A DNA stretch of 64,000 nucleotides from an uncultured Thermoplasmata archaeon (GTDB lineage Archaea > Thermoplasmatota > Thermoplasmata > Halarchaeoplasmatales > Halarchaeoplasmataceae): positions 7,086 through 71,085 of the forward strand of contig CAYMXS010000007.1 of the NCBI GenBank assembly GCA_964394465.1, in the 5' to 3' direction. Shown one piece after another: positions 40,719 to 61,837 of this stretch. Within the stretch, counting starts at the first letter, position 1. Every line of letters begins with the position of its first letter. The notes below the pieces were generated by a model. That model saw only the letters and a program-made list of their open reading frames with translations, made no database searches and was not told the origin of the DNA. The translations under genes were made by a program, and so were the position numbers.

Positions 40719-40837
40719 TATTTCACCCGGTTACCTATCAGATTTGAAGTATATAGAATTATCTATCCTTTTTGTGAAAATATCAAAGGGGTATGTTGTC
40801 ACGAAAATGTTTAATATTCTACTGAACGTGAAGAGTA

Positions 40838-41383
40838 TTGAAGAACATGTATAAGCATCTAGAGAACTTCAGTTTGAAGGAACTGATAGGGTACTCTATA
40901 GAATCTGAAGAGGCCTCGGCTAGGTTCTACAGCGATTTCGCTGAAACCTCGGTAGAGGAGATAATGAAAGAGCGTTTCAAGAGCCTTGCTAGGGATGAGA
41001 GGATACATAAAAAGGCACTCCTAGATATCCATGAAAAGGAGTTCGGGACCAGGGATTATACGATACCGGAATCTGAGGGACTTCCACCTCACGAGAGTTC
41101 CCATGATTTCGATGACGTAGTCAATCTGATAGATACCTTGGAGAAGGCCATGGAAAACGAGCGCAACGCCTTTAGGATCTATCAGTACCTGGCAAAGAGA
41201 TATGACGACCACAGGCCCATATTTCAATACCTAGCTATCATGGAGAAAGGTCACTACGAATCCATCAAGGCAGAGAGAGATATGCTGGAGGACGAGACCA
41301 TAGAGAGTACGGAACTGGATGAGAAGTCCATCTCGAACCTCTGGGCCGAACATCCCCTGTGCAGTAGAGCCGATAAAGATTAG
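40838..41383 (+). CDS. Ferritin-like diiron protein, divergent paralog 4, lacking the conserved C-terminal tail.
   Basis: Same E/H ligand pattern (ESEE; RDERIH; ENERNAFRIY; MEKGHYES). About 45% identical to paralogs 1-3. Different C-terminus and different promoter region. Confidence 0.55.
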   Translation: MKNMYKHLENFSLKELIGYSIESEEASARFYSDFAETSVEEIMKERFKSLARDERIHKKALLDIHEKEFGTRDYTIPESEGLPPHESSHDFDDVVNLIDTLEKAMENERNAFRIYQYLAKRYDDHRPIFQYLAIMEKGHYESIKAERDMLEDETIESTELDEKSISNLWAEHPLCSRADKD

Positions 41384-44825: not shown

Positions 44826-47800
44826 TTAGTAGTTCAGTTTTATACTCTTCTTCTGGAAGTAGAGTCCTATTCCAATTATGGAAACGACACCTACTAGTAT
44901 CAGCAGATACATCTTAAGGGAGTTCAGCCGGGCATCTTTTTCTCCAGACGTCAAGATATCGAGCCCTTCCTCCTCTTCCGTATCCTGTTTTTCAGGCCAT
45001 CTAGAACTGACCGCTTTGTCCTGGTATACCGTGTCCTGTTCATTGGTAGAGACCTGCTCTTCAACCGTAACATCGTCTATATACCATCCTCTGTAGTCGT
45101 TGTCGTAATCGTCTACCGAGTCGAATATGAACTTGACTTGTATGGTTTGACCAGCATAACCGGAGATATCGATCGTTTCTTTCACGAAGTTGTTCTCAGA
45201 GCCAACGTTGTCGTCACTCGTATCTCTGTAGTAGACCTGGTCACCATTCACCGTTACCTTACACCAGTCGTATTCACCTTCGTGATCTTCAGTCTTGAAC
45301 CAGTGTTCGAAGCTCAAAGTAGCTCCTGAGACACCGTTAAGATCTATTGTCGGTGATGTCAATATCCCGGTCGTGTGTGAACCTGTGTCGTAGTTTCCCG
45401 TGGAATCCTGGCCGTACCACATCGCCTTGGAACCGCTGCTGCTGTCTCCGTACTGATCGCTATCTTGCGTTAGATGCCACAGGCCGCTCGTGTTCCATGG
45501 GTTACCATTTTCGAAGTCTTCGTAGAATATTGTATCACTACTGCCGCCTCCATCGACGACCTGTGGGTCCGGTTGACTCACGATCCAGTCTTCAACGGTG
45601 TCTGTATCCTCCGAAGTATCTTCTCTTCTGATGACCTCTCCTGTAGAAGCCGATAGTTCACTCCAAGCATCTTGTTCCCAGCCCACTTCATCGACCGTCT
45701 GACCGTCTGTATCGTACAGTGTGAGTGTATCCCCGCCGTTGTTCAGTGAAAGGGGCAGGTCCCAAGCATCTGGAGTTTTACCATATTCACTCTCGAAGGT
45801 GTCTTTGTCCCTGCAGACAGTAAGATGAGTGCCTCCAGGTATCGAGATAGAGTCGTCGAAGGAGTAACTCGAGGACGAATCGTCCTTTATACTCCATCCC
45901 GAAAGCTCAACTGGATCTGAACCAGGGTTGAACAGCTCGATGTATTCCCCCTCTGAATCTGTACCTTCCACGTCGTAATATACCTCGGAAAGCAGTACTG
46001 TTTCAGAGGAAGGAGCGCTTCCTTCGTCGGCTTTCACACTCACATCGTCCACGTACCACCCTCGGTAGGCGTTATCATAATCGTCAAGGGTATCGAAACA
46101 GAACTTTATATTCACCGTTTGGCCAGCGTACTCTGATATATCTATCGTCTCTTTGACAAAGTTGTTTTCCGATCCGACGTTCTCGTCCGAGGTGTCTCTG
46201 AAGTACACCTTTTCGTCGTTTATCTTCACCTTTACATGGTCATAGCTGTCTTCATGGTCCTCCGTCTTGAACCAGTGCCTGAAGGAAAGTTCAGCTTGAG
46301 AAGCCTGAGTCATATCTATGGACTCGGAGACGAGTTGGCCCTTGGTTCTAGAGCCGGTGTCGTAGTCACCTGTCGAGTCCTGCCCATACCACATCGAGTG
46401 AGATGAACTGTAACTGTCACCGTACTGGTCGGATTCATCCACTCTATGCCACAGTCCGCTTGTGCTCCAGCCTGAAGAACTCTCGAAGTCATCCTCAAAT
46501 ATAGTGGTCATTTCTTCTCCATCTTCGCTTACATCTATCGTTTTAGATACTGTATCCGTGGCTCCATCGTCGTCCTCAACGGACAAAGAAACGGTGTAGG
46601 TACCAGGGGAGCCGTAAGGATGGCTTGGATCCTGCTGACTTGAAGTCGTGCCATCACCGAAGTCCCATGAGTAGGAAGCGATATCACCATCGTCGTCCGT
46701 GGAAGAATCGCTGAACTGTACAGTTTCACCTACGGTTGGACTAGCCGGTGAGAAGCTGAAGGAGGCAGAGGGTGCCGTGTTGCTCTCTCCGTCGGAATCG
46801 GCTTTGACCGTTATATCGTCAACGTACCAGCCCCTATAGGCGTTATCGTAATCGTCCACTGAATCGAATATGAACTTCAGCTCTACCGTCTGTCCTGTAA
46901 GAGCAGAAAGGTCGATGGTTTCCTTCACGAAGCTGTTCTCCGAACCGACGTTTTCATCCTTTGTGTTCCTGTAGTATACACGATTATTGTTCACCTTTAC
47001 TATCACCTTGTCGTACTCCCCTTCATCGCAGTTCTCAGTCTTGAACCAATGCTCGAAGGAAAGTTCAGCTTGAGAAGCCTGAGTCAGATCTATGCATGGA
47101 GAAGTGAGCTGGCCAGTCGTATGCGAACCTGTATCGTAGTTCCCTGTTGAATCCTGCCCATACCACATGGAGTGAGATGAACTGTAACTGTCACCGTACT
47201 GGTCGGATTCATCCACTCTATGCCAGAGTCCGCTGGTGCTCCAGGCTGAATCCCCTTCAAAATCCTCGTCTAATAATGTGTTGAGGTCTCCTCCACTGCC
47301 GCTCACGTCTACTGTTTTAGAGATAGAGTCCGAAGCGCCTTCGTTATCCGTCACGATCAACTCAACCGTGTAGGTTCCAGAAGAGGAGTAAGTGTGATAG
47401 GGACTTTCTTCTGTAGAACTTGAACCGTCTCCGAAGTACCATGAGTAGGAAGCGATGCTTCCGTCACTGTCTGAGGAACTATCGGTGAACTGTATGGCTT
47501 CTCCCTCGGTTGGATCCGCAGGAGTAAAGCTGAAGTCCGCCGTCGGTGCTTCATTCTGCTCCTCATCTTCTCCTATCGTAACGGTGTAATCCTCTGTTTC
47601 ACCGTACTCCTGGTTCGAAGTCGGATCGGTATGATAACCATCGTATTCCTGCATCACTCTCATCCTTGTCTCTCCGTTTGAAGCGTCGCTTGGGACCGTT
47701 ATGTCCTTCGTAACCGTTAATGGCTCACTGTTACCGTTTCCGACCTCTACAACTGTATCATCGCTAAGATCAAAGTTCTGGCCCCAGTCTATGACCGCTG

Positions 47801-50800
47801 TTACATACTCTGAATAACCACCGGTGCTTAGGGTGACAGACAACTCGTAGGATTGGCCGGGTGCACATGTCTCGGACACACTTCCTGTATGATCTGCGTA
47901 TCCTCCATCGTCACCGGAGTCTTTGTTGATCCCGTTGAAGTTTACGTTCGTTATATATTCATCATAACTAGTATCTCCACCTTCAACGGTGCTGTATCCC
48001 TGAGTGTCGGATTGAACCGAGATATCCTGAGTCTTTGAGTCCGTCGCTCCGTCGTCATCGGTTACGGTCAACTCTACCGTATAGGTGCCCGAAGAGGAAT
48101 AAGTGTGAGATGGACTCGCTTCCGTTGAACTTGAACCGTCTCCGAAGTTCCATGAGTAAGAGCTTATGCTACCGTCTAAGTCCTCCGAGGTATCGGTGAA
48201 CTGTATCGTTTCTCCAGAAGTCGGCTCGGTAGGATCATAGCTGAAGTCAGCCGTGGGTACCGTGTTCTCCTCACTGCTCTGGACTGTTATGTTCTTTGTA
48301 GTAGTGTCCGTCGCCCCTTCGTTATCCGTTACGGTCAACTCTACCGTGTAAGTTCCGGATGAGGAATAACTGTGTGCTGGGTCAGCTTGCGTTGAAGTCG
48401 AACTGTCACCGAAGTTCCAGTTCCATGAAACAATATCGTTCTCAGGCGTTGAACCGTCCTGGAATTGAACCGTATCTTCAGTGGTAGGGTTTGAAGGCGT
48501 GTAATCGAAGCTCGCCGTCGGTCCCTCGTCATCTGACCCTGTAGTCGAGAATGAGAAACTGTAATCTTCTCCCATGGTGTTCCCGACCTGGTCGCTTATG
48601 CTTCCTGAAACAGTAACTTGATAATCCGTATCGGACTGTAACCTGTCGTCCTTCATCTGATAGGCGAAACATGTGTCATAGCCGTCCAGATCGTTCCATT
48701 TATCGTTCTCTGGATCATATTGTGACAGATATCCTTTGTCGTAGCTATTGTCCGTCAGGCTCAACCTGTAACGATCTTCCTCGCTACCAGCGTCTTCCAT
48801 GCTGCATCTTATCCCGTACTGGGCTCCAGCGTCCACTTGGATAGGATCTTCAAGGTTCAAGCTTATCCAAGAGGCTTCTTCTGAACCGGTACCGACATCG
48901 GAAGGTTCGATATATTTAGTCATTAAAGCCTGACCTTCTGGTGCCCCATCTATCAATTGAACCTTTAGATCCTCTGGGGGATTTCCTAACTTGAACATAT
49001 TGAGCTTTAAGGAGCTTATCTCACCGCTGGTCTGAGGCTCGAAACCCTGGACGCACACGTATCCCTTGTAACAGGAAGCGGCATAATCTCCATCCTGGTA
49101 GTTCCCGTCGGTGTACAGTGGCACATCCATCTTCGAACTGTTCTGATCCAGTAGGAGGCCATGTCCAACATCGGGAGTTATATCTATAGTAGAACCGTCA
49201 ACGGTCGAAGTGTCTATGTTCTCCGAGAAATCCACCGTTATTCTTTCTGTGTCTATGGGAACGCTCTGTTCGTTGTCGAAGGGCTCGGTAGAAGTAACTT
49301 GAGGCGATTCCGCGTCAACATGAGCTGAATCCGTCTTCAACTGTGAACTCCCGTCTCCAACGTTATCATCTTCGTAGTAAACTGTTATCGTATCGCCGTG
49401 TGATATTATCAAATCATTAACACCCGATTTCGAGATGTCTATAGACCCTGTGAACTTCCCGGGACTATCATCGCTTTCGGAGAGTTGCACCGTTTCGTTT
49501 GAACCCTCTGTATCGCTGTATATATCAACGTTCTGACTACCAGTACCGGCTACATCTGAATCGAATAATTCTATCTGGACGGTATCCTGAGCGGGATAAA
49601 CGTCTTTGTTAAGCGTTATCTCGCCGTCGGAGCCTTCATCACCGGTGAATTCGACTTCTACTGTACTAGGGATCGTGGATGGGACGTCAGGTGAATTCTC
49701 TGATTCGAAGGTCGGCGCCCCGATCTCGTAACCAGAATCGTAATACTCTACATCGAAAGAGGATATGGTGGTCTCACCGGAGCTCTGCCCCATCTCGAGG
49801 TAGAAGTTCGTTTCTCCCTGACCCTCGTTCCAATCGTCTGCGAACTTGGTCATATCTACAGCCATGAAATCTGGATAGGGATGATCTCCGCCGTCGGAAG
49901 AGTATAATGGATCTCTAGATTCGACTGGGTTATTCGATGGACCTATACCCACTTCAGTACTGGCCGTTCTACTACCCGTCTCTGAGAACCCCCACGTGCC
50001 GAGTAGCTTTGGATGTTCCTGCTCTCCCTCGTAATAGGGGTCTATTAAACGATAGGCCGATTTGTATCCCCCTACGATCTCTCCGAAGCAGTCGTATGTC
50101 ATCCAATAGGTACCGTCATCGTTAGGTCCCCAGTAGGAGCCCCAGGAGTTGGCTACCTTGAACGCGCCGGTCTCACCGTCCTGAGATATGGAATCGTTGT
50201 ATCCCACTATAGTGTTCACGTGGTTGGTCTCATTCTCCACGTACTCCTCGCTTGTCATCACGTTATCGTCTCCGAAATAGCCGAACGCATCTTCATACTC
50301 GTTGGCATCCAAAGCGAGATTGACCAGGTGTTCGTCCTGGAGCCATGTTTTGACCACGTCGACTGAAGAAGTGGATTCGAAGTCACCCGTTCTGAACTGA
50401 GGCGCGCATCTCCAGGCGTCCTCATCGCCCCATGCTGTGACGTTGCTGGCATCATATGGCATAGTTTCAAGGTTCGCACAGCCCAGATCATCTAAAACGT
50501 CTGAAAGCGAATATATGTGGGAGCCTCCGTCCTCACCGCCGTTTACCTTGTTGTAGGCCCAGGCCGGGCTCATAAGGTACTCTTCGTTCCCTGTAGAGGC
50601 GTTTAAGCCGTGTGCTTTTGCCTGCAGAAACGTGTTGGAGTAATATACTATACCCCATGCGGCACAGGAACCCTGCTGTCCCTGATTACCTATGGGTGGG
50701 AAATATTTCCTCTCTGTTAGATCCAGATCGCTATCGGAAAGTATCTGGTCTGTAGGCCCCTTCACGTCTTCGACCACTTTCATGTCGTCGGCCATATCTT

Positions 50801-51086
50801 CGTACGTCTCTTCTGATGGGGGTGCGTAACCGGTTCCGTGGCCGTTGATTATCTCGTTGTAGTCCTTTCCAGTTTCTTTAACACCGAGTTCTGCTTTCAT
50901 CCTCTTCATCTCCGAGGCGCTCAGTTCTCTGGAAACGAACGTGATCTTCTCATCCGCTCTGGTTTTCCCTTTATCATTCACACCCAGACCGTGCTCTATA
51001 TCCTTTATCGCTATCGTCAGACCAGCACTGATCAGTAGGACCGCTACGAAAAGTGCCGCCAATCTGTAGTATCTCTTATCTATCAT
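44826..51086 (-). CDS. Giant acidic cell-surface protein (2086 aa): signal peptide, papain-like C1 cysteine peptidase domain, a ~470-aa uncharacterized region, 3 PKD domains alternating with 3 copies of an unassigned ~165-aa jelly-roll-like repeat, a lamin-tail domain, and a C-terminal TM anchor.
   Basis: C1 motifs QGQQGSCAAWG (Cys), HVNTIVGY (His), NSWGSYWG (Asn). PKD signature WNFGDSS...HSYSSSGTYTVELTVTD. Repeat signature GLWHRVDESDQYGDS..MWYGQDSTGNYDTG...HWFKTE...YRGWYVDD. LTD region EVYYDVEGTDSEGEYIELFNPGSDPVELSGWSI. Starts 19 bp after the stop of the upstream 1011-aa gene, so likely co-transcribed with it. Confidence 0.6.
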   Translation of the reverse strand: MIDKRYYRLAALFVAVLLISAGLTIAIKDIEHGLGVNDKGKTRADEKITFVSRELSASEMKRMKAELGVKETGKDYNEIINGHGTGYAPPSEETYEDMADDMKVVEDVKGPTDQILSDSDLDLTERKYFPPIGNQGQQGSCAAWGIVYYSNTFLQAKAHGLNASTGNEEYLMSPAWAYNKVNGGEDGGSHIYSLSDVLDDLGCANLETMPYDASNVTAWGDEDAWRCAPQFRTGDFESTSSVDVVKTWLQDEHLVNLALDANEYEDAFGYFGDDNVMTSEEYVENETNHVNTIVGYNDSISQDGETGAFKVANSWGSYWGPNDDGTYWMTYDCFGEIVGGYKSAYRLIDPYYEGEQEHPKLLGTWGFSETGSRTASTEVGIGPSNNPVESRDPLYSSDGGDHPYPDFMAVDMTKFADDWNEGQGETNFYLEMGQSSGETTISSFDVEYYDSGYEIGAPTFESENSPDVPSTIPSTVEVEFTGDEGSDGEITLNKDVYPAQDTVQIELFDSDVAGTGSQNVDIYSDTEGSNETVQLSESDDSPGKFTGSIDISKSGVNDLIISHGDTITVYYEDDNVGDGSSQLKTDSAHVDAESPQVTSTEPFDNEQSVPIDTERITVDFSENIDTSTVDGSTIDITPDVGHGLLLDQNSSKMDVPLYTDGNYQDGDYAASCYKGYVCVQGFEPQTSGEISSLKLNMFKLGNPPEDLKVQLIDGAPEGQALMTKYIEPSDVGTGSEEASWISLNLEDPIQVDAGAQYGIRCSMEDAGSEEDRYRLSLTDNSYDKGYLSQYDPENDKWNDLDGYDTCFAYQMKDDRLQSDTDYQVTVSGSISDQVGNTMGEDYSFSFSTTGSDDEGPTASFDYTPSNPTTEDTVQFQDGSTPENDIVSWNWNFGDSSTSTQADPAHSYSSSGTYTVELTVTDNEGATDTTTKNITVQSSEENTVPTADFSYDPTEPTSGETIQFTDTSEDLDGSISSYSWNFGDGSSSTEASPSHTYSSSGTYTVELTVTDDDGATDSKTQDISVQSDTQGYSTVEGGDTSYDEYITNVNFNGINKDSGDDGGYADHTGSVSETCAPGQSYELSVTLSTGGYSEYVTAVIDWGQNFDLSDDTVVEVGNGNSEPLTVTKDITVPSDASNGETRMRVMQEYDGYHTDPTSNQEYGETEDYTVTIGEDEEQNEAPTADFSFTPADPTEGEAIQFTDSSSDSDGSIASYSWYFGDGSSSTEESPYHTYSSSGTYTVELIVTDNEGASDSISKTVDVSGSGGDLNTLLDEDFEGDSAWSTSGLWHRVDESDQYGDSYSSSHSMWYGQDSTGNYDTGSHTTGQLTSPCIDLTQASQAELSFEHWFKTENCDEGEYDKVIVKVNNNRVYYRNTKDENVGSENSFVKETIDLSALTGQTVELKFIFDSVDDYDNAYRGWYVDDITVKADSDGESNTAPSASFSFSPASPTVGETVQFSDSSTDDDGDIASYSWDFGDGTTSSQQDPSHPYGSPGTYTVSLSVEDDDGATDTVSKTIDVSEDGEEMTTIFEDDFESSSGWSTSGLWHRVDESDQYGDSYSSSHSMWYGQDSTGDYDTGSRTKGQLVSESIDMTQASQAELSFRHWFKTEDHEDSYDHVKVKINDEKVYFRDTSDENVGSENNFVKETIDISEYAGQTVNIKFCFDTLDDYDNAYRGWYVDDVSVKADEGSAPSSETVLLSEVYYDVEGTDSEGEYIELFNPGSDPVELSGWSIKDDSSSSYSFDDSISIPGGTHLTVCRDKDTFESEYGKTPDAWDLPLSLNNGGDTLTLYDTDGQTVDEVGWEQDAWSELSASTGEVIRREDTSEDTDTVEDWIVSQPDPQVVDGGGSSDTIFYEDFENGNPWNTSGLWHLTQDSDQYGDSSSGSKAMWYGQDSTGNYDTGSHTTGILTSPTIDLNGVSGATLSFEHWFKTEDHEGEYDWCKVTVNGDQVYYRDTSDDNVGSENNFVKETIDISGYAGQTIQVKFIFDSVDDYDNDYRGWYIDDVTVEEQVSTNEQDTVYQDKAVSSRWPEKQDTEEEEGLDILTSGEKDARLNSLKMYLLILVGVVSIIGIGLYFQKKSIKLNY

Positions 51087-51105
51087 CTTCGTTCTCTCCT
51101 TTTAT

Positions 51106-54100
51106 TTATCTCCTTTTTGTTTTGGTCTCATCTCGTTCTTTTTTTCTGCTTCTAAGTGAGTAGACACCTCCGCCTACAAGACAGAAAGATGTGCATACTA
51201 GTAAGAAAATGGTTTTCAGGCCCACTCCGGTCAACATGTTCGGAGCGAGCGAGCTACTCTCTTCGTTCTCTTTCGTTGCTTCTCCTCGCGTTGGAGCGTT
51301 TTCATAGGAAGCGCCACCGAAATCCTCAGCAGCCTCTGAGGTACTTGTGACCTGACCGGCGTCGGCCTTGACCTCTATATCGTCCACGTACCAGCCCCGA
51401 TAACCGTTGTCATAATCGTCTATGGAATCGAAGATGAACTTGATCGTAACCGTTTGACCGGTATAAGAGGACAAGTCTATGGTCTCCTTCACGAAATCAT
51501 CTTCTGAACCAACGTTGTCGTCACTCGTGTCTCTGTAGTAGACCTGTTCTCCGTTGACCGTCACCTTGACCTGGTCGAATTCATCGTCGTAATCTTCGGT
51601 TCTAAACCAGTGTGAGAAGCTCAACTCTGCCTGCGCTGCCTCTAACAGGTCGATAGTCGGAAGAGTAAGAACCCCTCTAGTATGTGAACCGGTATCGTAA
51701 GTTCCCGTGGAATCCTGACCGTACCATATAGCGTTTGATCCATCGTTGGCGTCTCCGTACTGGTCGTTCTCATCCACTGTATGCCATAGACCAGTTGTAC
51801 TGTATCCCGAGGGATCGCCTTCGAAGCCCTGCGTGTATATTGAATTTAGACCGTCATTACCACCGTCATCGTTATCATCATCATCCCCGTCACCTTCTGA
51901 CCCACTGGAAACTTTCACATCGTCTACATACCAACCGCGATAGTCATTGTTGTAATCGTCTATGGAATCGAAGGTGAACTCGATCTCTACCGTTTGACCC
52001 GCATAAGATGAGATATCGATGGTCTCTTCGACGAAGTTGTCTTCTGAGCCAACATCATCGTCTGTCGTGTCTCTGTAATACACCTTCTCTCCGTTCACCG
52101 TGACTTTCACCTTGTCATAGTTACCGTCGTCGTAGTTCTCCGTCTCGTACCAGTGCTGAAAGCTCAACGAAGCCTCAGCAGCAGAGCTCAGGTCTACCGA
52201 TTTGCTCAACGAACCGGTCGTATGTGAACCGGTATCGTAATCTCCTGAGGAATCCTGACCGTACCACATGGCGTTGGTTCCACTGCTGCTGTCTCCGTAC
52301 TGATCGTTTTCTGAAACGAGGTGCCATAATCCGTTGGTCGACCATGCTGATGATCCGTCCTCGAAATCCTCGTCTATCGTACTGGTTTCACCACCATCGT
52401 TTCCGCTGCTCACCGATACATCTCTCGTAGATGTGGATGAAGAACCGTCGTTATCTTCGACGGTCAGTGAAACAGTGTAAGTGCCTTCAGAATCAAAGTC
52501 GTGTGTAGGGTCCTGTTCGTTACTGTTGGTACCGTCGCCGAAGTCCCAGGACCACGAAGTTATAGAGCCATCTGGGTCAGAAGACACGTCGGTGAATTCT
52601 ACATTCAACTCGTTCACTTGATGCTCGAAGGAAGACTCAGGGCCTTCATTCTCGTCGTTTCCGCCTGACGATGTAGAAGTAACCTTCACATCGTCCATAT
52701 GCCAGTTATCCGACCATTCAGGGTCTCCGTCCGTCTGCCTGTACATTACCTTGAAGTCTGAATGGAACGCTTCTGAAGGCAGCTCTACATTCATCTGGAT
52801 GATCTCTCCTGCTGTTCCTCCGCCGGCATACGTTTTTAGGTGATCCCAGTTTCCTTCATTGTCTTTGTACGAAACGACCAGATCTTCTCCCTCGTCTGGA
52901 TTTTCACTGAAACTGTCCTTACCTCTGCGTATCCACGTTTTCAACCTTGCATCTTGAACTCCGTTGATATCTATAGTGGGGGAAACGACACTGGCGGTTC
53001 CACCGCAGGTGTAAAGCGAGTAGGAGCCAGAACCGGTACTCTCCGATCCATAATTCGAAGTGATGCCTGCATGACTTCCGTCGTTAGTGTTGGTAGACCA
53101 GTCGTTCAGTGAACCGTCTTCGAAGTCGTCCTCGAATATCGTCGTCGGGCCACCAATTACTTCTGCGTTCAGTTCGTAAGTCCCGTCGCCGCCGTCCGAA
53201 TGTACCATGATTATGTAAGTTCCGGCTTCCGGGTTATCTATAGTCAAGGATTCGTCTGTATCAGACCAGCCGTCGCTCTTTTTGTCATGGTCCGAAAGGG
53301 TCGGCTCCTCTCCTTTACTCACATAGAGATCGAAATCGGTGAACCACCCTCCGGAACCGTCCAAGTCTAAGGTCAGCTCGTCACGGGCCTGGTCTAACTC
53401 CAACGTGTAATACTGTCTATAATCGTCCTCTTTTAATTCCCCCGAGACTTCGTTCTGCGTGTTCAGTTCATGATAACCGTTATCTCCGTCCTGCATGTGC
53501 AGGAACGTGTACGTCTCGTCGTCACTCAGTTCCCAGTCAGCTCCGAAATTACATGACGAATGATAAGATATCTCGCCGTTACCCAGGTAAAGTGCGTTAT
53601 GCTGTATATGACCGTCTCCATTATGATCGTAAGCTATCACATCACCGACATGTAATTGATCTACACTTGAGACCTCTTCAGCATATCCTTCCTCTAAGAG
53701 AAAATCGACGAAGTTCTGAGCTCCGGGTTCTCCATATGTAGGCGGAACTCTTGAAGGAACGGGGATTCCTCCACCCTTCTGGTTTTCCTCGTCACCGACA
53801 CAGCATGAGATAAAATGCGTACAGTCCCATCCTCCCGAGACTTCCGTGCCTTGGTCCAGTTCTACGTAATCCGTCTGGGTCTCCCAGAAGTACCCATCGC
53901 TGGGTACCACGTCCCAGTACTCGTAGGCGTATTCATAGGCTGATCTACGGTCGTAGAAGGAAGCAGGTTCATCCATGAGTGAATCATCATCTGATGTTTT
54001 ATCCGAGCTGCCCGCTAGTTGTTCATGGCCTTCACCTATAGAGGCGAAACTGACCATGAACGCTGAGAACAGCAGGACCAGCACCACACCTACTCCTACC

Positions 54101-54141
54101 AACTTGACCCCTTTACTATCTTTATCTTCTTTTTTTATCAT
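51106..54141 (-). CDS. Giant surface protein (1011 aa): N-terminal TM, NlpC/P60-superfamily amidase-like (Amidase_6-like) Cys/His domain, PPC (pre-peptidase C-terminal) domain, 3 copies of the ~165-aa repeat (the first divergent), PKD domain, Asp-rich linker, C-terminal TM.
   Basis: Amidase-like SGGWDCTHFISCCV...GDVIAYDHNGDGHIQHNALYLG. PPC region DLYVSKGEEPTL...GTYIIMVHS. Repeats with GLWH..ENDQYGD..WYGQDS.G.YDTG. Confidence 0.55.
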   Translation of the reverse strand: MIKKEDKDSKGVKLVGVGVVLVLLFSAFMVSFASIGEGHEQLAGSSDKTSDDDSLMDEPASFYDRRSAYEYAYEYWDVVPSDGYFWETQTDYVELDQGTEVSGGWDCTHFISCCVGDEENQKGGGIPVPSRVPPTYGEPGAQNFVDFLLEEGYAEEVSSVDQLHVGDVIAYDHNGDGHIQHNALYLGNGEISYHSSCNFGADWELSDDETYTFLHMQDGDNGYHELNTQNEVSGELKEDDYRQYYTLELDQARDELTLDLDGSGGWFTDFDLYVSKGEEPTLSDHDKKSDGWSDTDESLTIDNPEAGTYIIMVHSDGGDGTYELNAEVIGGPTTIFEDDFEDGSLNDWSTNTNDGSHAGITSNYGSESTGSGSYSLYTCGGTASVVSPTIDINGVQDARLKTWIRRGKDSFSENPDEGEDLVVSYKDNEGNWDHLKTYAGGGTAGEIIQMNVELPSEAFHSDFKVMYRQTDGDPEWSDNWHMDDVKVTSTSSGGNDENEGPESSFEHQVNELNVEFTDVSSDPDGSITSWSWDFGDGTNSNEQDPTHDFDSEGTYTVSLTVEDNDGSSSTSTRDVSVSSGNDGGETSTIDEDFEDGSSAWSTNGLWHLVSENDQYGDSSSGTNAMWYGQDSSGDYDTGSHTTGSLSKSVDLSSAAEASLSFQHWYETENYDDGNYDKVKVTVNGEKVYYRDTTDDDVGSEDNFVEETIDISSYAGQTVEIEFTFDSIDDYNNDYRGWYVDDVKVSSGSEGDGDDDDNDDGGNDGLNSIYTQGFEGDPSGYSTTGLWHTVDENDQYGDANDGSNAIWYGQDSTGTYDTGSHTRGVLTLPTIDLLEAAQAELSFSHWFRTEDYDDEFDQVKVTVNGEQVYYRDTSDDNVGSEDDFVKETIDLSSYTGQTVTIKFIFDSIDDYDNGYRGWYVDDIEVKADAGQVTSTSEAAEDFGGASYENAPTRGEATKENEESSSLAPNMLTGVGLKTIFLLVCTSFCLVGGGVYSLRSRKKERDETKTKRR

Positions 54142-54211
54142 CTTTTTCCTCCTGATGAGATAGCTCTTTTCTTCTGTTTCCGGCTACCCCCTGCTTATAT
54201 AAAAAGAGAAT

Positions 54212-54244
54212 CCGCATATATGCAGGAATCTAGGGATTATGCGC
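54212..54244 (-). promoter_or_regulatory. Conserved palindromic element CCGCATATATGC-N12-ATTATGCG, about 70-100 bp upstream of the 1011-aa surface-protein gene; putative promoter (TATA-like ATATAT) or operator.
   Basis: Same element with identical 12-nt spacing at 59046-59077, upstream of the 1551-aa gene. The GCATATATGC core is a perfect palindrome. Confidence 0.45.
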
Positions 54245-54327
54245 ACCCGTCATCGGGACAAAATTTAGAACTCTAGACAAGTGCAAAAAAGGTGTAAAAA
54301 AGAGGGAGTTAACGGGTTTTTATCTAG

Positions 54328-57300
54328 CTATCCTAGAAGGGATGACCTTCCCTTCGTTTTGACCGGATGATCCCTTCCTTCGTTCTTAGAGTCGAGTTCT
54401 GTTCTCGTACCTCTTCTACTCCTAGCGTCCGCAAATTCCTCTTCATCGTCGTCTCTCAGTATTATAGCGCCGAAAACACCGCTTATCGTCACTATCAGGA
54501 GGGACCCGATTATCCCTATGACGGAGACGAACCCAACTGGACTTTCATCCTCTTCTTTCTCATCAATGGACCTCGAATCCCCGCTGTTCCTCAGGTCTTT
54601 ACAGGTCATGCCGTCTTTCAAGGTCGTGAGGACCTCGTTTGACCCGTCTTTATCCTGGTCGAGTTTCATAGTCACTTTCGGATTTCGGTCGTTCCTCAGT
54701 GAACTCCAACTTTTACTCGATAGTGTGTGGATAGAACCTCTGTTGTAGCCTATCTCGCTTACCAGCACTTTGCTCTCTTTACCTTTGGGTTTTACATGTT
54801 TCGCCCCCATGTTATACGTCTGATCGGTAGAGCTCTGGACCGAGACCGTCATGTTGGAATAGATGTTTATAGTCGTCGTCTCACCCTGCTCGGTTTCAAA
54901 ACCGGTCATGTTGACGAAGTCTGCGCCGGACTCGTTGAAGTCTCCCAGGTCCATGGAGAACGTGCCGTCTTCCTGTCCCGTTACCGTAACTGTATAGTTC
55001 CTCTCGTCGTGTGGCAGCTTGAAGCTCTTGTGTTCTCCATACACCGCGCTCGAGTCCGAGATCTCGTTGTCAACGCCGTCTCCACCCAGTGATATCGTGT
55101 TCCCATAGGAATCCTCCACCGTCACGTTCACGGGGCAGTTGATGGACAATCCGAAGTTGTCCAGTATGGCGTCCCATATGATCGAGGCGTCGAAGTGTGA
55201 AAGGAAGTAATCCATCACATCTGGGTAGGAAGTAGGCTCGGAGCACTCGTAGCTCTCCATGAACTCACCGCCGTAGTAGACTCCGCCGGAACTATCGTAG
55301 GTCTGGAACCTCATCCCGGACATCGCCAGTTGGATACCGAAGACCGTAGCACCGAGATCTATGTTGAAGCCTGTGCTCTGCATCTTCTGCGATTTGACCG
55401 AGTAGTATATGGGTAGTTTTCCTTCCGCGACGCCTTCAGCTATACCCTTTATCAGGTTCATGTCCACCTGCCCCTCTTCTGTATTATCTGCGAAGATGTC
55501 TTCCCATCTCTCCTCGTATTGGCTCACTGGAAGGTTGAATGTGATCTTGTAGCCGGACTCACTGGTACTAGAAACCTGCTGAAGCGGTGAAAGGAGGTTG
55601 AAGTATCCGTTGACTATCGGAGTGAGCGTTCCAGAACCATCGACGCTCAACTCCAGATTGACCATCTCTGGGAAGCACTGAGGATCGTCTCCGCCTGAAA
55701 GTATGAAATCAGTCATCGTCTCTAGGTCGCTGAACCTGCTTTTCAGTGTGATCTCGCCCTTACCTTCAAACGAACTTCCGCCCAGGAAGGCGCATTCAGA
55801 TGCAAAGCTTCCGGAGAACCTTGCCTTAGTCGCGAGTGTGACGCTTCCATCGAAGTTGAAGTTCACGTACGCCTTACCTCTGAACATGCCGTTCAAGGCG
55901 GCGTTGAAAAGACTGAAGTCCGCTCCCGAGTCATAGTCCTCTCCATCGTGGTTACCTGAAAGACCTATCTGTGGATCCAATGTAGCGCTCCCACTGGCCT
56001 CGCCGTATACTCCCGCATGTATATTTCCGACCGGGTCTGTATCATCTACATCTGGATAGAGCGAGGACTCCAGCAATCCTATCGCCGCATCCGAGAGCAT
56101 GGAGAGCGGGGGTCCTGAAACGTGCATGCCGTAGAGTGCCAGTTTCGTCGAGATGTATGTCGCGACCAGATCTTTCTCCTCTTCCGTCAGGTCCTGAAAG
56201 CCCATGTATCCACCGAACAGAAGGCCACCCACCAAGGATGATTGAAGTGAAGCCTCAGCAGAACCTATCTGTGCCTTGTATCCCGGCTCTATACCTATGC
56301 CGGCCCATGCCTCTCCGAACAGTGAAGGGTTCCCGAGATTGTCCAGTGATAACATCCCGAAGACGTTGGCTTCGCCGTGCAGTCCATATTCTCCACCGAC
56401 CTGACCGTATATACCCAATTTCGTATTCTTCTTCTGTTCCTTCAGTTCAAATGTGAACGGCTCGGATGTTGTCTCGTATTCGACCTGATTCCCGTCGATA
56501 CTCAACGAATCTACACTGACCGAAAGTTCTTCATCTGATATTTCACTCAGATCCAACCAGATCTCCGCCATGCCGTGGTTGGTTCCTACCTGATGTGTGG
56601 TTACTGGGTTATCTGAGATCACCTGAACGTCCCAGGGTGAAACCGAGTAAGATACGTCCACGTTGTCGACCCCGTTGTTCGCCGTGTTCCTCACCTGAAG
56701 GTAGACTGAACAGTTGTATCCTTTCTTTATGTGGTCTTTCTGGAAGGCTCTAGCCACGTATAACGAGCTGCTTCCTTCATCCGCTTCTATAGAGACATCG
56801 TCTACATACCAACCTCTGTAATCGTTAGCGTTGCCATCTACTGAATCGAAGACGAACTTGACCTGTAATTGTTGACCCGCATATTCAGATATATCTATCG
56901 TTTTCTTTACGAAGTCGTTCTCGGAGCCGACGTTTGGATCCGACGTATCTTTGTAGTAAACCTCTTCGCCGTTTATTATCACCTTGACCTGGTCGTACTC
57001 TCCGTCGTAGCTTTCGGTCTTGAACCAGTGCTGGAAAGTCAGTTGTGCCTCACTCGAAGGAGGAACGTAAACCGAAGGGCTGGTCAAAGCTCCGTTGGTC
57101 CTTTCGCCTGTATTGTAATCTCCACTGCCTGCCTGTCCATACCACATCGATTTAGAACCGCTTTTACTGTCACCGTACTGATCGCTTTCTGAAGTGAGGT
57201 GCCATAGACCGGAACTTGTCCATGAAGAAGCGCCGCCTTCAAAGTCCTCCGAAAGTAGAGATTCCATGCCGTCGTCGGCTTCGTTTATCGTCACTGTTGT

Positions 57301-58983
57301 AGAGTAAGAATCGCTCGCCCCTTCGTCGTCCTGTACGGTCAAAGTGACATCATATGTTCCAGGGGAACCGTATGTGTGTGAAGGGCTCTGTTCTGAGGAA
57401 GTAGCTCCATCTCCGAACTCCCAGGAGTAAGAAGCGATGTTTCCATCGTCGTCGTATGAATCATCCTGGAACTGGACCGTATCTTCCGTTGTAGGGTTCG
57501 AGGGTGTAAAACCGAAGGAAGCGCTGGGAGGGGAGTTCGTTTCACTCTCATCCATATCCGCTTTGATCATAACGTCGTCTATATACCAGCCGCGGTAATC
57601 GTTGTAAGAGCCGTCCATGGAGTCGAACTTGAACTCAAGGTCTATCGTCTGTCCCGCGTGATCAGATATATCTATCGTCTCTTTGACAAAGTTGTTTTCC
57701 GATCCGACGTTCGGGTCTGAAGTGTCCCTATAGTAAACCTGGTCGCCGTTGACTAGAACAGTGATCTGATCGTACTCTCCGTCGTAATTTTCCGTTTCGA
57801 ACCAGTGCTCGAAGGAGAGTTCAGCCTGAGTTGCCCCGTTCAAATCTATAGATGACGAGGCTAAGGAACCGGAGGTCCGTGACCCTGTATCGTAGTCTCC
57901 CGAGGAATCCTGGCCGTACCACATGGAATTCGAACCGCTGCTGCTGTCACCATACTGATCACTCTCGGAAGTAAGGTGCCACAGACCACCGGTACCCCAG
58001 CCTAAAGGCCCCTCTTCAAAGTTGTCGGAGAATACGGTGTTCATATCTCCTTGATCTTGACTTATCGATAGATCTTTAGAATAGGTATCGGTCGAACCGT
58101 CGTTGTCTTCGACCTCTAACGAAACCGTGTAAGTTCCCGCTGAACCGTAGGTATGTGAAGGATCCTGTTCTGAAGAAGTCGAGCCGTCACCGAACTCCCA
58201 TGAACAAGAGACTATGTTTCCATCTGAATCGGACGACTCATCGGTGAATTGAATGGTTTCACCGACTTCAGGACTGCTCGGTGAATATGTGAAGGAGGCC
58301 GAAGGGTTATTTCCGCCGTCGTTCGAATCCGTCTGTACACTCACATCGTCCACGTACCAGCCGCGATGATCGTTTGAATATTTATCTAGTGAATCGAAGA
58401 TGAAGTCGATCTCTATTTCTTGTCCTGCAAAGGAAGAGATATCGATCTCTTCTTCAACAAAGTTGTTTTCCGAGCCGACGTTAGGATCCGAGCAATCCCT
58501 GTAATAAACCTGCTGTCCGTTGACGTTCACTTTCACCTGGTCGTAATCTCCTGAGTAACTCTCGGTTTCGAACCAGTGCTGAAAAGTGAGTTCCGCGTCG
58601 GAAACACCGCTAAGGTCTATCGAAGGTGAGCCCAAAGAACCACCCGTCTGTGAACCAGTGGCGTAATTTCCTGTCGAATCCTCACCGTACCACATCGATT
58701 TAGAACCGCTGTGACTGTCACCGTACTGATCGCCTTCTGACGTGATATGCCAGAGACCGGAAGTACTCCAGCCCGTTCCGCCGTTTTCGAACTCCGTCGA
58801 GTAGACCACGTTTGAGTTTTCTAACTCTTGAGTGTTGGAATCAGCTGTTCTCTCAGGATCATCAGCTTTTACCGACCTTACGAAGCCCGTGAGTCCACTG
58901 GCTAAAAGAAGTATCACCGCAGAGACACAGACTATCTTCAACGCCCTGCTCTTCAAAACCTTTTTAGGTAATCTTTCATTCAT
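54328..58983 (-). CDS. Giant surface protein (1551 aa): signal peptide, 3 copies of the ~165-aa repeat alternating with PKD domains, a ~800-aa non-repetitive G/S-rich beta-rich region, and a C-terminal TM plus charged cytoplasmic tail.
   Basis: Repeats GLWHITSEGDQYGDS...; PKD signatures WEFGDGSTSSEQDPSHTYGSAGTYTVSLEVED; C-terminal TM VGFVSVIGIIGSLLIVTISGVFGAIIL. Confidence 0.55.
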   Translation of the reverse strand: MNERLPKKVLKSRALKIVCVSAVILLLASGLTGFVRSVKADDPERTADSNTQELENSNVVYSTEFENGGTGWSTSGLWHITSEGDQYGDSHSGSKSMWYGEDSTGNYATGSQTGGSLGSPSIDLSGVSDAELTFQHWFETESYSGDYDQVKVNVNGQQVYYRDCSDPNVGSENNFVEEEIDISSFAGQEIEIDFIFDSLDKYSNDHRGWYVDDVSVQTDSNDGGNNPSASFTYSPSSPEVGETIQFTDESSDSDGNIVSCSWEFGDGSTSSEQDPSHTYGSAGTYTVSLEVEDNDGSTDTYSKDLSISQDQGDMNTVFSDNFEEGPLGWGTGGLWHLTSESDQYGDSSSGSNSMWYGQDSSGDYDTGSRTSGSLASSSIDLNGATQAELSFEHWFETENYDGEYDQITVLVNGDQVYYRDTSDPNVGSENNFVKETIDISDHAGQTIDLEFKFDSMDGSYNDYRGWYIDDVMIKADMDESETNSPPSASFGFTPSNPTTEDTVQFQDDSYDDDGNIASYSWEFGDGATSSEQSPSHTYGSPGTYDVTLTVQDDEGASDSYSTTVTINEADDGMESLLSEDFEGGASSWTSSGLWHLTSESDQYGDSKSGSKSMWYGQAGSGDYNTGERTNGALTSPSVYVPPSSEAQLTFQHWFKTESYDGEYDQVKVIINGEEVYYKDTSDPNVGSENDFVKKTIDISEYAGQQLQVKFVFDSVDGNANDYRGWYVDDVSIEADEGSSSLYVARAFQKDHIKKGYNCSVYLQVRNTANNGVDNVDVSYSVSPWDVQVISDNPVTTHQVGTNHGMAEIWLDLSEISDEELSVSVDSLSIDGNQVEYETTSEPFTFELKEQKKNTKLGIYGQVGGEYGLHGEANVFGMLSLDNLGNPSLFGEAWAGIGIEPGYKAQIGSAEASLQSSLVGGLLFGGYMGFQDLTEEEKDLVATYISTKLALYGMHVSGPPLSMLSDAAIGLLESSLYPDVDDTDPVGNIHAGVYGEASGSATLDPQIGLSGNHDGEDYDSGADFSLFNAALNGMFRGKAYVNFNFDGSVTLATKARFSGSFASECAFLGGSSFEGKGEITLKSRFSDLETMTDFILSGGDDPQCFPEMVNLELSVDGSGTLTPIVNGYFNLLSPLQQVSSTSESGYKITFNLPVSQYEERWEDIFADNTEEGQVDMNLIKGIAEGVAEGKLPIYYSVKSQKMQSTGFNIDLGATVFGIQLAMSGMRFQTYDSSGGVYYGGEFMESYECSEPTSYPDVMDYFLSHFDASIIWDAILDNFGLSINCPVNVTVEDSYGNTISLGGDGVDNEISDSSAVYGEHKSFKLPHDERNYTVTVTGQEDGTFSMDLGDFNESGADFVNMTGFETEQGETTTINIYSNMTVSVQSSTDQTYNMGAKHVKPKGKESKVLVSEIGYNRGSIHTLSSKSWSSLRNDRNPKVTMKLDQDKDGSNEVLTTLKDGMTCKDLRNSGDSRSIDEKEEDESPVGFVSVIGIIGSLLIVTISGVFGAIILRDDDEEEFADARSRRGTRTELDSKNEGRDHPVKTKGRSSLLG

Positions 58984-59045
58984 ATTAGCCCCTTCCTTTG
59001 CTTCTTCTTGTGGTAAAAAGGTCCCTATGATTATTTAAAGAGACT

Positions 59046-59077
59046 CCGCATATATGCGAAAAGTTTCTAATTATGCG
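59046..59077 (-). promoter_or_regulatory. Second copy of the CCGCATATATGCG-N12-ATTATGCG element, 63-94 bp upstream of the 1551-aa surface-protein gene.
   Basis: Near-identical to the 54212-54244 element in sequence, spacing and position relative to the start codon. Confidence 0.45.
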
Positions 59078-59123: not shown

Positions 59124-60323
59124 CTAAACCCTATCTTCTGGCGTGAGTGCAGAGGCGTCTATGCCCGTATGTAATGTATGTCTAGGTCTTACTTTACAAA
59201 GCTGTAATTTCCTCGTTCTATCGTCGAACAGCATGGCAAGACCCCGTTTATACTCCATGTTGCCAACTATTTCATCTAAACTCTCTTTCATGTAGGACTG
59301 TTTCGCCGCTTTCAAGGCGTCCAGATCGTCTTTGGAAGTCAGATTATGCGCCAGGATGATGTCTGCCTGCCTGATAGCGCTTACATGCAGTGCGGAAGGT
59401 TCTTGAGTCGCTAGGATCAAGGAAAGACCGGGGTGCCTTCCAAGTTTGATCCAGTCTATCAAAGAAGGCGTAGCAAGGGTTTCCTCTCCGGACGGGAGGA
59501 AGAGATGTGCCTCGTCTATCAGCATGTAGATTATGGGATATTCTTCCGTTATATCTTTTGTAGTTTCACTCTCTATCAGGCGTGACTGGGCCTGCATCTC
59601 TACAGTGGTGTAGAGTGTCCTTTTGGCCATCTGTTCTCTAGCGAATATCGAAACGATAAGGTTCCTCAAGGAGTACTTACCCACTCTGCCCAGGTATGAT
59701 ATGTCCAGAACGGTTATCTTACCGCTGACCGCAAACCCTTCCTGAAGACCGTCTTTAGAGAATATATCCAGTCTATCTATCATCCTGAACAGGTTCTTCA
59801 AAGACTCTTTTTTACCCTCGTCTTCACCGATCGTATCTATCTTCTTGTAAACATCCTGAAAAGAAAATTTCTTCTCTTCCTTGAGCTCGGAGATGACCTT
59901 GCTGAGCAGTGCCCCTATGGGTTCCGTCAGTTCAAGATCGAACAGCTTGAGCCACTCGTGGACCTCCACCTTATGTAGAGGCAGTTCTAACACGTCGTCA
60001 TGGAATATCTTTTCTCCGGACTTCTCCGTTTCTCTTAGAGCCGCTTTTGGGACCAAAATACGGACTTTATCTTCCCAGCTATCCGGTTCTATATCAAAGT
60101 CGTCCATCCTTTTCAGCTCATCGTATCTATCGTTCTCCTTCTTGAGGCTGTGGAAGACGGACATCGTGTCTACTAAAATCAAAGCTAGTCTGTCGGAGTG
60201 TTTCTCTTCGAGCTTAGCGAATTCCTCGGCTATGACTCCAAGGGTGTATGACTTCCCGGTGCCTCTTTTACCGACCACCAGCATACAGTGAGGAGAAACG
60301 ATATCGAGGTAGGTCTTACCCAT
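59124..60323 (-). CDS. HerA/FtsK-superfamily (DUF87-type) P-loop ATPase.
   Basis: Walker A VVGKRGTGKSYT and Walker B IYMLIDEAHLF; C-terminal LILATQEPSAL. No adjacent NurA gene. Confidence 0.5.
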   Translation of the reverse strand: MGKTYLDIVSPHCMLVVGKRGTGKSYTLGVIAEEFAKLEEKHSDRLALILVDTMSVFHSLKKENDRYDELKRMDDFDIEPDSWEDKVRILVPKAALRETEKSGEKIFHDDVLELPLHKVEVHEWLKLFDLELTEPIGALLSKVISELKEEKKFSFQDVYKKIDTIGEDEGKKESLKNLFRMIDRLDIFSKDGLQEGFAVSGKITVLDISYLGRVGKYSLRNLIVSIFAREQMAKRTLYTTVEMQAQSRLIESETTKDITEEYPIIYMLIDEAHLFLPSGEETLATPSLIDWIKLGRHPGLSLILATQEPSALHVSAIRQADIILAHNLTSKDDLDALKAAKQSYMKESLDEIVGNMEYKRGLAMLFDDRTRKLQLCKVRPRHTLHTGIDASALTPEDRV

Positions 60324-60453
60324 CTCCTCGTACTTCCCTCCGGGATAAGAGACGTTCTTGCCGAGGTAGCAGCATCCTACGGTACCTAGTTCTTCCGCAG
60401 CTTTCTCCGACCGTCCGAAGATCTCGTGGGTCTCTAACAGCTGATCAGCAACC

Positions 60454-60924
60454 TTATCCTTTTACGGGGATCGTGCCCTGCTTCTCCTTCGTCATGTCTC
60501 CAGTGTACTTTACGGTGACCTGTATCTCGCCGAAGTTCTCGTTGGAGGGCAGATCCGCTTTGTTCTCTAAGTCCGTGAAGGTGGCCTCGCCGTCCGAATT
60601 CGTCTTCTTTATCTCGCTGACGCCACATCCTTCTAACGTGACTGTAGCCCCTTCTAATCCGTTACCATTCTGGTCATAAGCGGTTATGGTGACTTCTTCA
60701 CTATCTCCTCCGATCGAGACCGTGTCATCACTTCCAGCACCTTCGATCTCTATATGGTCCAGTTCAGTGGACTCGGCGCCCATCATCCAGCCGGCTATTA
60801 TCGCGGTCCCTATACCCGCTATGACTACGAGGATGATCAGGTAAAGAGGTAAACCCTCTAAGGCGCCTTTACAGTCAATTTTCCTTCTGTTTAATACTCT
60901 ATCTTTCATTTTATCCTTAGGCAA
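60454..60924 (-). CDS. Small secreted or membrane protein with a possible class III (type IV pilin-like) signal peptide and an Ig/CarboxypepD_reg-like beta domain.
   Basis: N-terminal basic region then KGALEGLPLYLIILVVIAGIGTAIIAGW. Beta-rich DQNGNGLEGATVTLEG...TNSDGEATFTDL. Confidence 0.35.
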   Translation of the reverse strand: MPKDKMKDRVLNRRKIDCKGALEGLPLYLIILVVIAGIGTAIIAGWMMGAESTELDHIEIEGAGSDDTVSIGGDSEEVTITAYDQNGNGLEGATVTLEGCGVSEIKKTNSDGEATFTDLENKADLPSNENFGEIQVTVKYTGDMTKEKQGTIPVKG

Positions 60925-60991
60925 TTTAAAACATGATATTTATCTCTTACGATTAAAATTATATAATAAAAGATAGAAATAAACCCTTTCT

Positions 60992-61837
60992 CTATATGCC
61001 TTCGACCGTGTATATGTTGTGGCCGTCTTTGTATATGCGGATGGCCCCTTCGGAGGAAGCGACTATAGCTATGGCCCTGGTCTGATGGGTTATGTATGAG
61101 GCGGCCAGATGTCTTCCTCCTAGCCCCTCCTCAACCAGACCGTTCAGGTCCACATCGTCTTTGAACATGACGTATCTGCCCGCTGCCCTGGGATTACCGT
61201 ACCTGTCAACGACCAGAGCGCCGTCCAGCATGGAATACTCGATGATAGTGTTCTGCTTCTCTTCGTCCAGTATGTTCAGGTCCTCTTTGGAGCACCCCTT
61301 GAAGGGATTACGAACGGACTCGTTCGTTCTTTTCAAGACCTGGTTCACGTCTCCGAGTATCATCAGGCCTCCGACCGGCAGGCCCTCTTTACCCTCTCTG
61401 ACTATCGTCGTACCGATATTGAAGGCCGCTTCCAGGATCTCGAGGTCCAATCGGTCCTCTATCTCCTCTTTGAGGTTGATCACGCCTATATCTTCCATGC
61501 TGAAAGTCAATATGGTGTCTATATCCGTGGAGATGACCACCATGACCCTTTCATCTCTATCTAGGGTACCTTCGGCGGCGCATGACAGGACGATCTGCTT
61601 GCCCTGTTCCAGCACGTCCAGACCGACCGATGGTTTGTTCTTCGTCTTCCTTATCCGTATATTGTCTCTGCCTAAGAATGATGAAAGTGCCGGATGCTGG
61701 GTGAATATGATCAACGGAATGTCTCTTATCCTTTCCGAGAGGTCTTCCATAAAATCCTTAGAATCGGTGTAAAGTATGACGGTAGAAGGGTCTATATCCT
61801 CCTTCATGTTCAGTGTATGCTCTATAAAGTCTGACAT
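60992..61837 (-). CDS. dacZ: Diadenylate cyclase (archaeal DacZ-type: N-terminal pyruvate-kinase-like domain plus C-terminal DAC domain).
   Basis: DAC motifs LDGALVVD...GNPRAAG and GGRHLAASYITHQTRAIAIVASSEGAIRIY (DGA / RHRAA-like). Confidence 0.7.
   Translation of the reverse strand: MSDFIEHTLNMKEDIDPSTVILYTDSKDFMEDLSERIRDIPLIIFTQHPALSSFLGRDNIRIRKTKNKPSVGLDVLEQGKQIVLSCAAEGTLDRDERVMVVISTDIDTILTFSMEDIGVINLKEEIEDRLDLEILEAAFNIGTTIVREGKEGLPVGGLMILGDVNQVLKRTNESVRNPFKGCSKEDLNILDEEKQNTIIEYSMLDGALVVDRYGNPRAAGRYVMFKDDVDLNGLVEEGLGGRHLAASYITHQTRAIAIVASSEGAIRIYKDGHNIYTVEGI

Follow-up and report, generated by a model that had tools for sequence, protein, structure and literature searches.

The 64,000-nucleotide (nt) window analysed here (contig CAYMXS010000007.1 of assembly GCA_964394465.1, forward-strand positions 7,086 to 71,085) comes from an uncultured archaeon of the Thermoplasmata, and its positions 44826-58983 are filled by three successive genes, all on the minus strand, that encode large proteins built in part from repeated domains. 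We call these genes A, B and C. They were defined by their open reading frames (ORFs) and translations, with domains assigned by Pfam, and all coordinates below are those of the window:

44826..51086, minus strand: gene A, 2086 amino acids (aa); N-terminal hydrophobic segment, papain-like Peptidase_C1 domain, Big_5, four PKD domains, GEVED, three InhA-like MAM domains, lamin-tail domain, C-terminal hydrophobic anchor
51106..54141, minus strand: gene B, 1011 aa; Amidase_6/NlpC-P60-like domain, PPC, one divergent MAM/reelin-like domain (about 52672-53154), one PKD domain, two MAM domains, C-terminal anchor
54328..58983, minus strand: gene C, 1551 aa; N-terminal MAM-PKD-MAM-PKD-MAM series, then about 810 aa without a Pfam match, then C-terminal anchor

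Proteins A, B and C belong to a well-known kind, the repeat-rich surface proteins. Each translation has a hydrophobic segment at its start and, at its end, a hydrophobic segment together with charged residues, and all three are very acidic, with aspartate and glutamate making up 17-21% of their residues. The PKD profiles (PF18911/PF00801) score 276, 65.5 and 138 bits in A, B and C at a cutoff of 27, the 276 bits in A being the score of PKD_4, and the WxFGDG motif occurs seven times. The InhA-like MAM profile (PF20773) scores 81.6, 51.5 and 79.4 bits in the same order at a gathering cutoff of 26.9, and Peptidase_C1 reaches 40.8 bits in A, where the cutoff is 20.7. An AlphaFold2 model of one MAM unit is all-beta with 10 strands (predicted local distance difference test score 82, predicted template-modelling score 0.83). 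Its Foldseek matches to the meprin MAM domain, the neuropilin MAM domain and InhA2 have E = 1e-5 to 1e-6 and TM-scores of 0.53-0.64, and the model also resembles the Eph ligand-binding domain and the cleaved-adhesin domains of gingipains. These fold matches mark the repeat of 165-172 aa as a predicted jelly-roll and putative binding module. We infer that A, B and C are most likely type-I anchored surface hydrolases in which the PKD and MAM domains would serve as spacers and ligand binders. Genes A and B are probably co-transcribed, because B lies only 19 nt upstream of A; a gene of the same length as A is called in two NCBI metagenome-assembled genomes (MAGs). The C-terminal part of protein C (aa 742-1551, window 54328-56760) is an orphan region of about 810 aa: Pfam gives no match to it, and in a word-index search of 5.8 billion proteins no homologue spans it. 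When full-length protein C was used as the query, no orthologue matched over more than 43% of the protein.

The repeated domains resolve into eight MAM units of about 172 aa and seven PKD units, as follows:

46782..47297, minus strand: MAM unit Am1, gene A, aa 1264-1435
46008..46523, minus strand: MAM unit Am2, gene A, aa 1522-1693
45036..45551, minus strand: MAM unit Am3, gene A, aa 1846-2017
51883..52398, minus strand: MAM unit Bm1, gene B
51343..51858, minus strand: MAM unit Bm2, gene B
58309..58824, minus strand: MAM unit Cm1, gene C
57538..58053, minus strand: MAM unit Cm2, gene C
56761..57276, minus strand: MAM unit Cm3, gene C
46518..48533, minus strand: PKD region of gene A, with Ap1 at 48270-48533, Ap2 at 48003-48266, Ap3 at 47292-47555 and Ap4 at 46518-46781; GEVED lies between Ap2 and Ap3, and Am1 (46782-47297) between Ap3 and Ap4
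52399-52662, minus strand: PKD unit Bp1, gene B
58051-58314 and 57274-57537, minus strand: PKD units Cp1 and Cp2, gene C

A preliminary description of this locus had taken the repeats to be near-identical in DNA and not only in protein. Similarity at the DNA level is indeed detectable, but the units as a whole are far from near-identical. With the MAM units delimited by protein alignment and the codons threaded through that alignment, unit pairs are 54-71% identical in protein and 59-72% identical in DNA, and the proportion of synonymous differences (pS) is 0.59-0.87, which is at or past saturation for nearly every pair. Among the PKD units identity is 44-67% for protein and 50-69% for DNA, and the longest exact run measures 22 nt. 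In a blastn self-comparison of the region, the kind of check that had been proposed, copies match at 65-77% identity over 200-1500 nt, a level of nucleotide similarity that falls short of near-identity; a separate repeat search of the region gave 60-79% between copies, and Tandem Repeats Finder reported no array in 40-64 kb.

What similarity there is requires little explanation beyond the proteins themselves. When the same protein pairs were back-translated at random with the codon usage of genes A, B and C, identities of 57-65% arose from this procedure alone, and the observed excess is only 1-7 points. Among the MAM pairs of the window an identical amino acid is written with an identical codon in 0.39-0.61 of cases, where 0.41 is expected from codon usage; the highest fractions (0.58-0.61) belong to Am1-Am2, Bm1-Bm2 and Cm1-Cm3. 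The DNA resemblance between units is therefore almost entirely a by-product of protein conservation and codon bias.

The units also have close relatives elsewhere in the same genome. An exhaustive profile search returned 7459 representatives of the MAM family at E <= 1e-3 (a word-indexed profile search had yielded just 14, none of them a protein of the window itself), and its top hits led to two more loci of the same MAGs, GCA_905333785.1 and GCA_905333475.1. One locus encodes an 1830-aa paralogue of A (D1830; C1 peptidase, GH25, amidase, SH3 and PKD/MAM domains), whose neighbours are an 1870-aa PKD protein and a C25 peptidase, and the other encodes proteins of 1242, 1277 and 2844 aa, so that the genome holds at least 19 MAM units. 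Seven of the eight MAM units in the window have their closest partner by protein identity on another contig or locus of the genome, the exception being Bm2, whose closest partner lies in the window. The units of gene C, for instance, are 58-63% identical to one another, and their identity to a unit of the 1242-aa protein reaches 67%. A and D1830 share a collinear PKD-MAM-PKD-MAM cassette with 69% identity over 508 aa. That the nearest relatives lie at other loci argues against recent duplication or homogenisation. Over longer evolutionary distances the number of modules varies between species, since an A-like gene in a more distant MAG, GCA_964516805.1 (L022:2000-6500), encodes a C1 peptidase and a PKD-PKD-GEVED-PKD series with a single MAM unit at the end; this gene has a 100-N gap inside it, and gene calling begins only at 5001. 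In a third MAG, GCA_905333415.1 (contigs L016, L019 and L021), the D1830 paralogue is present at 100% identity, and the MAM units of a metallophosphatase-LTD protein are only 62-65% identical to the 1277-aa protein of the window's genome, a mismatch that points to mis-binning, co-occurring relatives or gene sharing.

Within this diverged family a few short patches are identical. The repeat string quoted in the preliminary description is genuine, although its start had been placed at 46404, 8 nt off register, and the block WHRVDESDQYGDSYSSSHSMWYGQDSTG does occur twice in the 2086-aa protein, with related blocks in the 1011- and 1551-aa proteins. The whole window contains only three exact direct repeats longer than 24 nt (56, 48 and 32 nt), which we treat as candidate conversion tracts:

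46380..46471, minus strand: tract 1, Am2 copy, with an exact 56-nt core at 46396-46451
47154..47245, minus strand: tract 1, Am1 copy, with the exact core at 47170-47225
46281..46312, minus strand: tract 2, Am2 copy, 32 nt exact, partner in Am1 at 47055-47086
46135..46182, minus strand: tract 3, Am2 copy, 48 nt exact, partner in Cm2 at 57665..57712, 11.5 kb apart

Tract 1 as extended matches at 88 of 92 nt, and 60 nt separate it from tract 2 in the Am1-Am2 pair. The resulting pattern is a mosaic. Am1 and Am2 are 95.9% identical within the tracts versus 64.4% outside them, and their codons for shared residues are the same in 33 cases and different in 4 inside the tracts, against 34 and 43 outside; for Am2 and Cm2 the corresponding counts are 15 and 1 inside, 30 and 52 outside. 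Other units with the same peptides show 10-37 nt differences across the tract columns: the 16 residues of tract 3 recur in Am3 written with other codons, and Am3 likewise writes NVGSENNFVKETIDIS with different codons.

We assessed these runs against a null simulation with position-specific codon-identity probabilities covering all 210 unit pairs, a set that includes two units of another MAG. The identical degenerate-codon runs of 17 and 16 have pairwise p < 0.001, with global p values of 0.019 for Am1-Am2 and 0.042 for Am2-Cm2, and the run between units m2 and m3 of the 2844-aa protein (G2844) was reached by no simulation (global p < 0.0004). Across the 210 pairs the median same-codon fraction is 0.45 and the median longest exact run is 15.5 nt, whereas the five longest exact runs (65, 56, 48, 40 and 35 nt) all fall within one gene or locus; no exact match that the window shares with other contigs of the genome is longer than 31 nt. 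Dependence on proximity together with a mosaic pattern is what short-tract gene conversion predicts, and the two lend modest support to that mechanism.

Taken together, these observations lead us to favour, at a probability of roughly three in four, the view that the locus holds members of an old, diverged PKD/MAM family carried in membrane-anchored surface proteins, on which a few short conversion patches have been superimposed. According to this view, a halophilic archaeon of the Thermoplasmatota would encode three membrane-anchored, very acidic, multi-domain surface proteins, in which varied enzyme heads are joined to strings of two reusable beta-sandwich binding modules, the PKD domain and the InhA-like MAM jelly-roll. 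A would have a papain-like protease as its head and B an amidase or NlpC-like domain, and in C the place of the head would be taken by a large non-repeat part of no assigned type that lies C-terminal to the modules. The modules probably arose by old cassette duplication and domain shuffling, giving at least 19 MAM copies per genome whose synonymous sites are now saturated, and patches of 32-56 nt would occasionally have been copied between nearby modules by short-tract conversion, two of them joining Am1 and Am2 in gene A and one joining Am2 of A with Cm2 of C. The claim of gene conversion made earlier for this locus thus survives for a few short tracts, and that of recent duplication is not supported by the saturated synonymous sites and by nearest relatives that lie at other loci.

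Several points weigh against the conversion part of this view. The two window tracts reach modest global significance (p = 0.02-0.04), and the tract borders were picked after the data had been seen. The tracts also sit on the most conserved peptide motifs, which raises the odds of codon identity, and the position-specific null corrects for this only in part. Four mismatches in the 92-nt tract indicate either that the event was not recent or that the 56-nt core alone was converted. Finally, the quartet comparison of A and D1830 units (25:11:10) favours within-gene grouping over positional orthology and yields no usable polarity of conversion; we had attempted to read the direction of transfer between Am1 and Am2 from the collinear A/D1830 cassette, and this was dropped because the quartet gave no positional orthology. 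In the block of tract 1, the second unit of D1830 has 19 states of Am1 and Am2 that are absent from its first unit, which suggests that older exchanges also involved this block.

A more elaborate account is possible, if doubtful. It would see a lineage-private modular set of hydrolase-adhesins, in which at least seven giant proteins join different enzyme heads to a total of at least 19 MAM-like modules, proximity-dependent micro-conversion over 30-65 nt carries variable surface-loop sequence from module to module, and part of the set is co-regulated through the palindrome CGCATATATGCGG. Tract 1 covers a strand-loop-strand segment containing residues 36-38, the loop modelled with the lowest confidence, and the units vary in sequence there. 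The palindrome lies in the following region:

54198..54243, minus strand: upstream region of gene B with the palindrome CGCATATATGCGG beside a TATA-like box, repeated upstream of gene C at 59032-59077

It stands 8-10 nt upstream of the TATA-like box before genes B (54212-54224) and C (59046-59058), and is also found before the 2844-aa paralogue and before a gene in another MAG (L018:7905-7920; L019:3912-3927). As a 12-mer with one mismatch it occurs three times in the 64-kb window, where 0.13 occurrences are expected, making it a candidate for a shared operator or promoter element of surface-protein genes.

A simpler account would dispense with conversion and regard the patches as chance runs of shared codons at conserved motifs in a codon-biased family. 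The tracts do overlap the conserved motifs GLWH..DQYGDS..MWYGQDS and NVGSENNFVKETIDI, the global p values stop at 0.02-0.04, and a between-genome pair, xF1268m2-Am1, also has a 14-codon run. Chance does not predict, however, that the five longest runs of all 210 pairs should lie between physically close units, nor does it sit well with the 10-37 nt by which units of the same peptide differ over these columns or with a second Am1-Am2 tract only 60 nt from the first, and we consider this account unlikely.

The remaining alternatives bear on the stability of the locus, for which other assemblies provide a test. The exact 1011-aa protein B is encoded on four other contigs, two belonging to NCBI MAGs and two to Logan assemblies of separate runs. 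All four are collinear with the window, with zero indels and 99.95-100% identity. Over about 18 kb the five assemblies differ by at most seven single-nucleotide polymorphisms (SNPs), of which five lie in the spacer 54265-54327, one in A (47657) and one in C (58834); no tract contains any. The spacer that holds the cluster of five is 63 nt long and runs from the stop codon of gene C to the promoter of gene B. Nothing in these five assemblies of the population indicates collapse or mis-joining, and they show neither copy-number change nor mosaic variants. The preliminary description had expected the repeats to generate surface variation, to which these assemblies lend no support, and had called the conversion ongoing, a qualifier that the scarcity of SNPs and their absence from the tracts does not bear out.

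It is in this light that we judge the idea that the units duplicated recently, or stay near-identical through pervasive ongoing conversion, and so yield surface variation between cells or strains. The local identities of 56, 48 and 32 nt speak for it, as do the quartet counts, which weakly favour within-gene grouping of the A and D1830 units, and the same-codon fractions of 0.58-0.61 in three pairs over the 0.41 baseline. Yet outside the tracts the Am1-Am2 fraction is 0.44, which is the saturation level, and the idea is largely refuted by the synonymous sites (59-72% DNA identity with pS of 0.59-0.87); with seven of eight units closest to other loci and with five assemblies lacking copy-number differences, mosaic differences and tract SNPs, it becomes very improbable.

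Also scarcely credible is that a chimeric or collapsed short-read consensus manufactured the identical patches. The source is a metagenome-assembled genome, and at 57694 one Logan contig (L003) stops after the first 30 nt of the 48-nt exact repeat, as a k=31 graph would be expected to do. The two NCBI MAGs nevertheless agree without indels with the two Logan assemblies, which stem from different runs, the three reading frames are open with domain boundaries intact, and the patches are shorter than one read. The assembly risk foreseen for this locus is thus confined to fragmentation: exact repeats can break small-k assemblies here, not corrupt them, and the collapse and mis-joining that had been feared are not seen in five collinear assemblies. 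Both Logan contigs stop at 47919, in the GEVED region of gene A, and no repeat that would explain these ends was found in the assemblies and contigs compared.

A diversity-generating retroelement, in which a template and a variable repeat would target a surface protein, is suggested by a short near-identical repeat pair within such a gene, and was rejected as having a negligible chance of being correct: the six mismatches of the pair are at third positions and mixed (C/A, C/G, C/G, T/C, A/G, G/T) rather than adenine-specific, both copies are coding units of one domain type, and no reverse transcriptase is encoded among the 33 window ORFs scanned against Pfam.

The locus resembles several known systems in part. 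One of them is the InhA-like MAM domain of the Bacillus immune inhibitor A M6 metalloprotease (PF20773; PDB 4YU5/4YU6). The unit lies above the gathering score of that family, and it has a weak sequence match (E = 0.015) as well as a fold match to 4yu5. In both cases an accessory beta-sandwich is attached to an extracellular hydrolase, but here each protein has two to four copies of the domain and the genome at least 19, the host is an archaeon, and the copies occur with PKD domains and with heads other than M6 (C1 peptidase, amidase, metallophosphatase). A search of the literature on InhA-like MAM domains in archaea found nothing relevant. The fold of the unit also matches the K1 and K3 adhesin domains of Kgp, and the gingipain/HagA system of Porphyromonas gingivalis (PDB 4ITC, 3M1H) resembles the locus in having cysteine-protease surface proteins with repeated jelly-roll adhesin modules common to several genes; a Peptidase_C25 gene even adjoins the paralogue D1830. 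The gingipain and hagA repeats are near-identical in DNA over long stretches and recombine, whereas the units described here are synonymous-saturated and have only patches of 32-56 nt in common.

Hundreds of PKD-repeat proteins make up the main database matches, and the seven strong PKD units of the locus are in keeping with the PKD-rich surface proteins of archaea and bacteria. What is specific to this lineage is the alternation of PKD and MAM in a cassette, together with the orphan C-terminal half of protein C, of which the matches cover at most 43%. With short-tract conversion and concerted evolution in surface genes it shares patches of identity on a diverged background between physically close paralogous units. 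Homogenisation is minimal, however, and the units are no more alike within genes than between loci, so occasional patch exchange describes the locus better than concerted evolution; the low synonymous divergence and within-gene nearest units that recent duplication or concerted evolution would leave are not the pattern of the MAM units.

The surroundings of the locus are those of an ordinary archaeal chromosome. The window carries genes for AlaRS, PheRS-beta, SHMT, the glycine-cleavage T protein, FolD and diphthamide synthase, the GC content of the locus is like that of the rest of the window, and neither a transposase, an integrase nor a reverse transcriptase was detected among the ORFs scanned. 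The SHMT is 84-86% identical to those of hypersaline Thermoplasmatota MAGs, Ca. Natronoplasma among them, that come from the Great Salt Lake and from soda lakes, and this group has been characterised, on the basis of MAGs, as salt-in halophiles (PMC11332174). Relatives keep the order rubrerythrin, diphthamide synthase, CBS and SHMT, but in an SHMT-anchored synteny scan of nine relatives none had gene A, B or C downstream, and a search of genome contigs with protein B found no relative. Across these searches and the one with protein C, related species showed no orthologous locus. The locus therefore lies at a break in synteny and is specific to its lineage. Directly upstream of gene C, at 59124-61837, lie genes for a HerA/DUF87-like ATPase of 399 aa, a small Big_1-like protein of 156 aa and a protein with a DisA_N (diadenylate cyclase) domain, none of which was found downstream of SHMT in the relatives. 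Elsewhere in the window, four rubrerythrin paralogues occupy 37998-41383, three in tandem and one at 40838-41383, with exact repeats of 17-23 nt between them, where related MAGs have a single copy at the corresponding position. A 103-nt tRNA at 11590-11692, found by Rfam and missed by ARAGORN, is consistent with an archaeal intron-containing tRNA. This tRNA, the acidic composition of the proteins, and the gene order and SHMT similarity shared with hypersaline MAGs all speak for a halophilic Thermoplasmatota host.

The locus serves as a correction, in that protein conservation and codon bias can fully explain the visible DNA resemblance of protein repeats, and a lone striking match of 56 nt is no basis for generalising to a whole repeat family. 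In practical terms it assembles reliably, small-k assemblies being at risk only from the three exact repeats of 32-56 nt. As a repeat architecture it is of a familiar type. What the locus documents is a lineage-specific expansion of surface hydrolases built from PKD and MAM modules in uncultured halophilic Thermoplasmatota, an expansion that bears on the feeding and attachment of these organisms.

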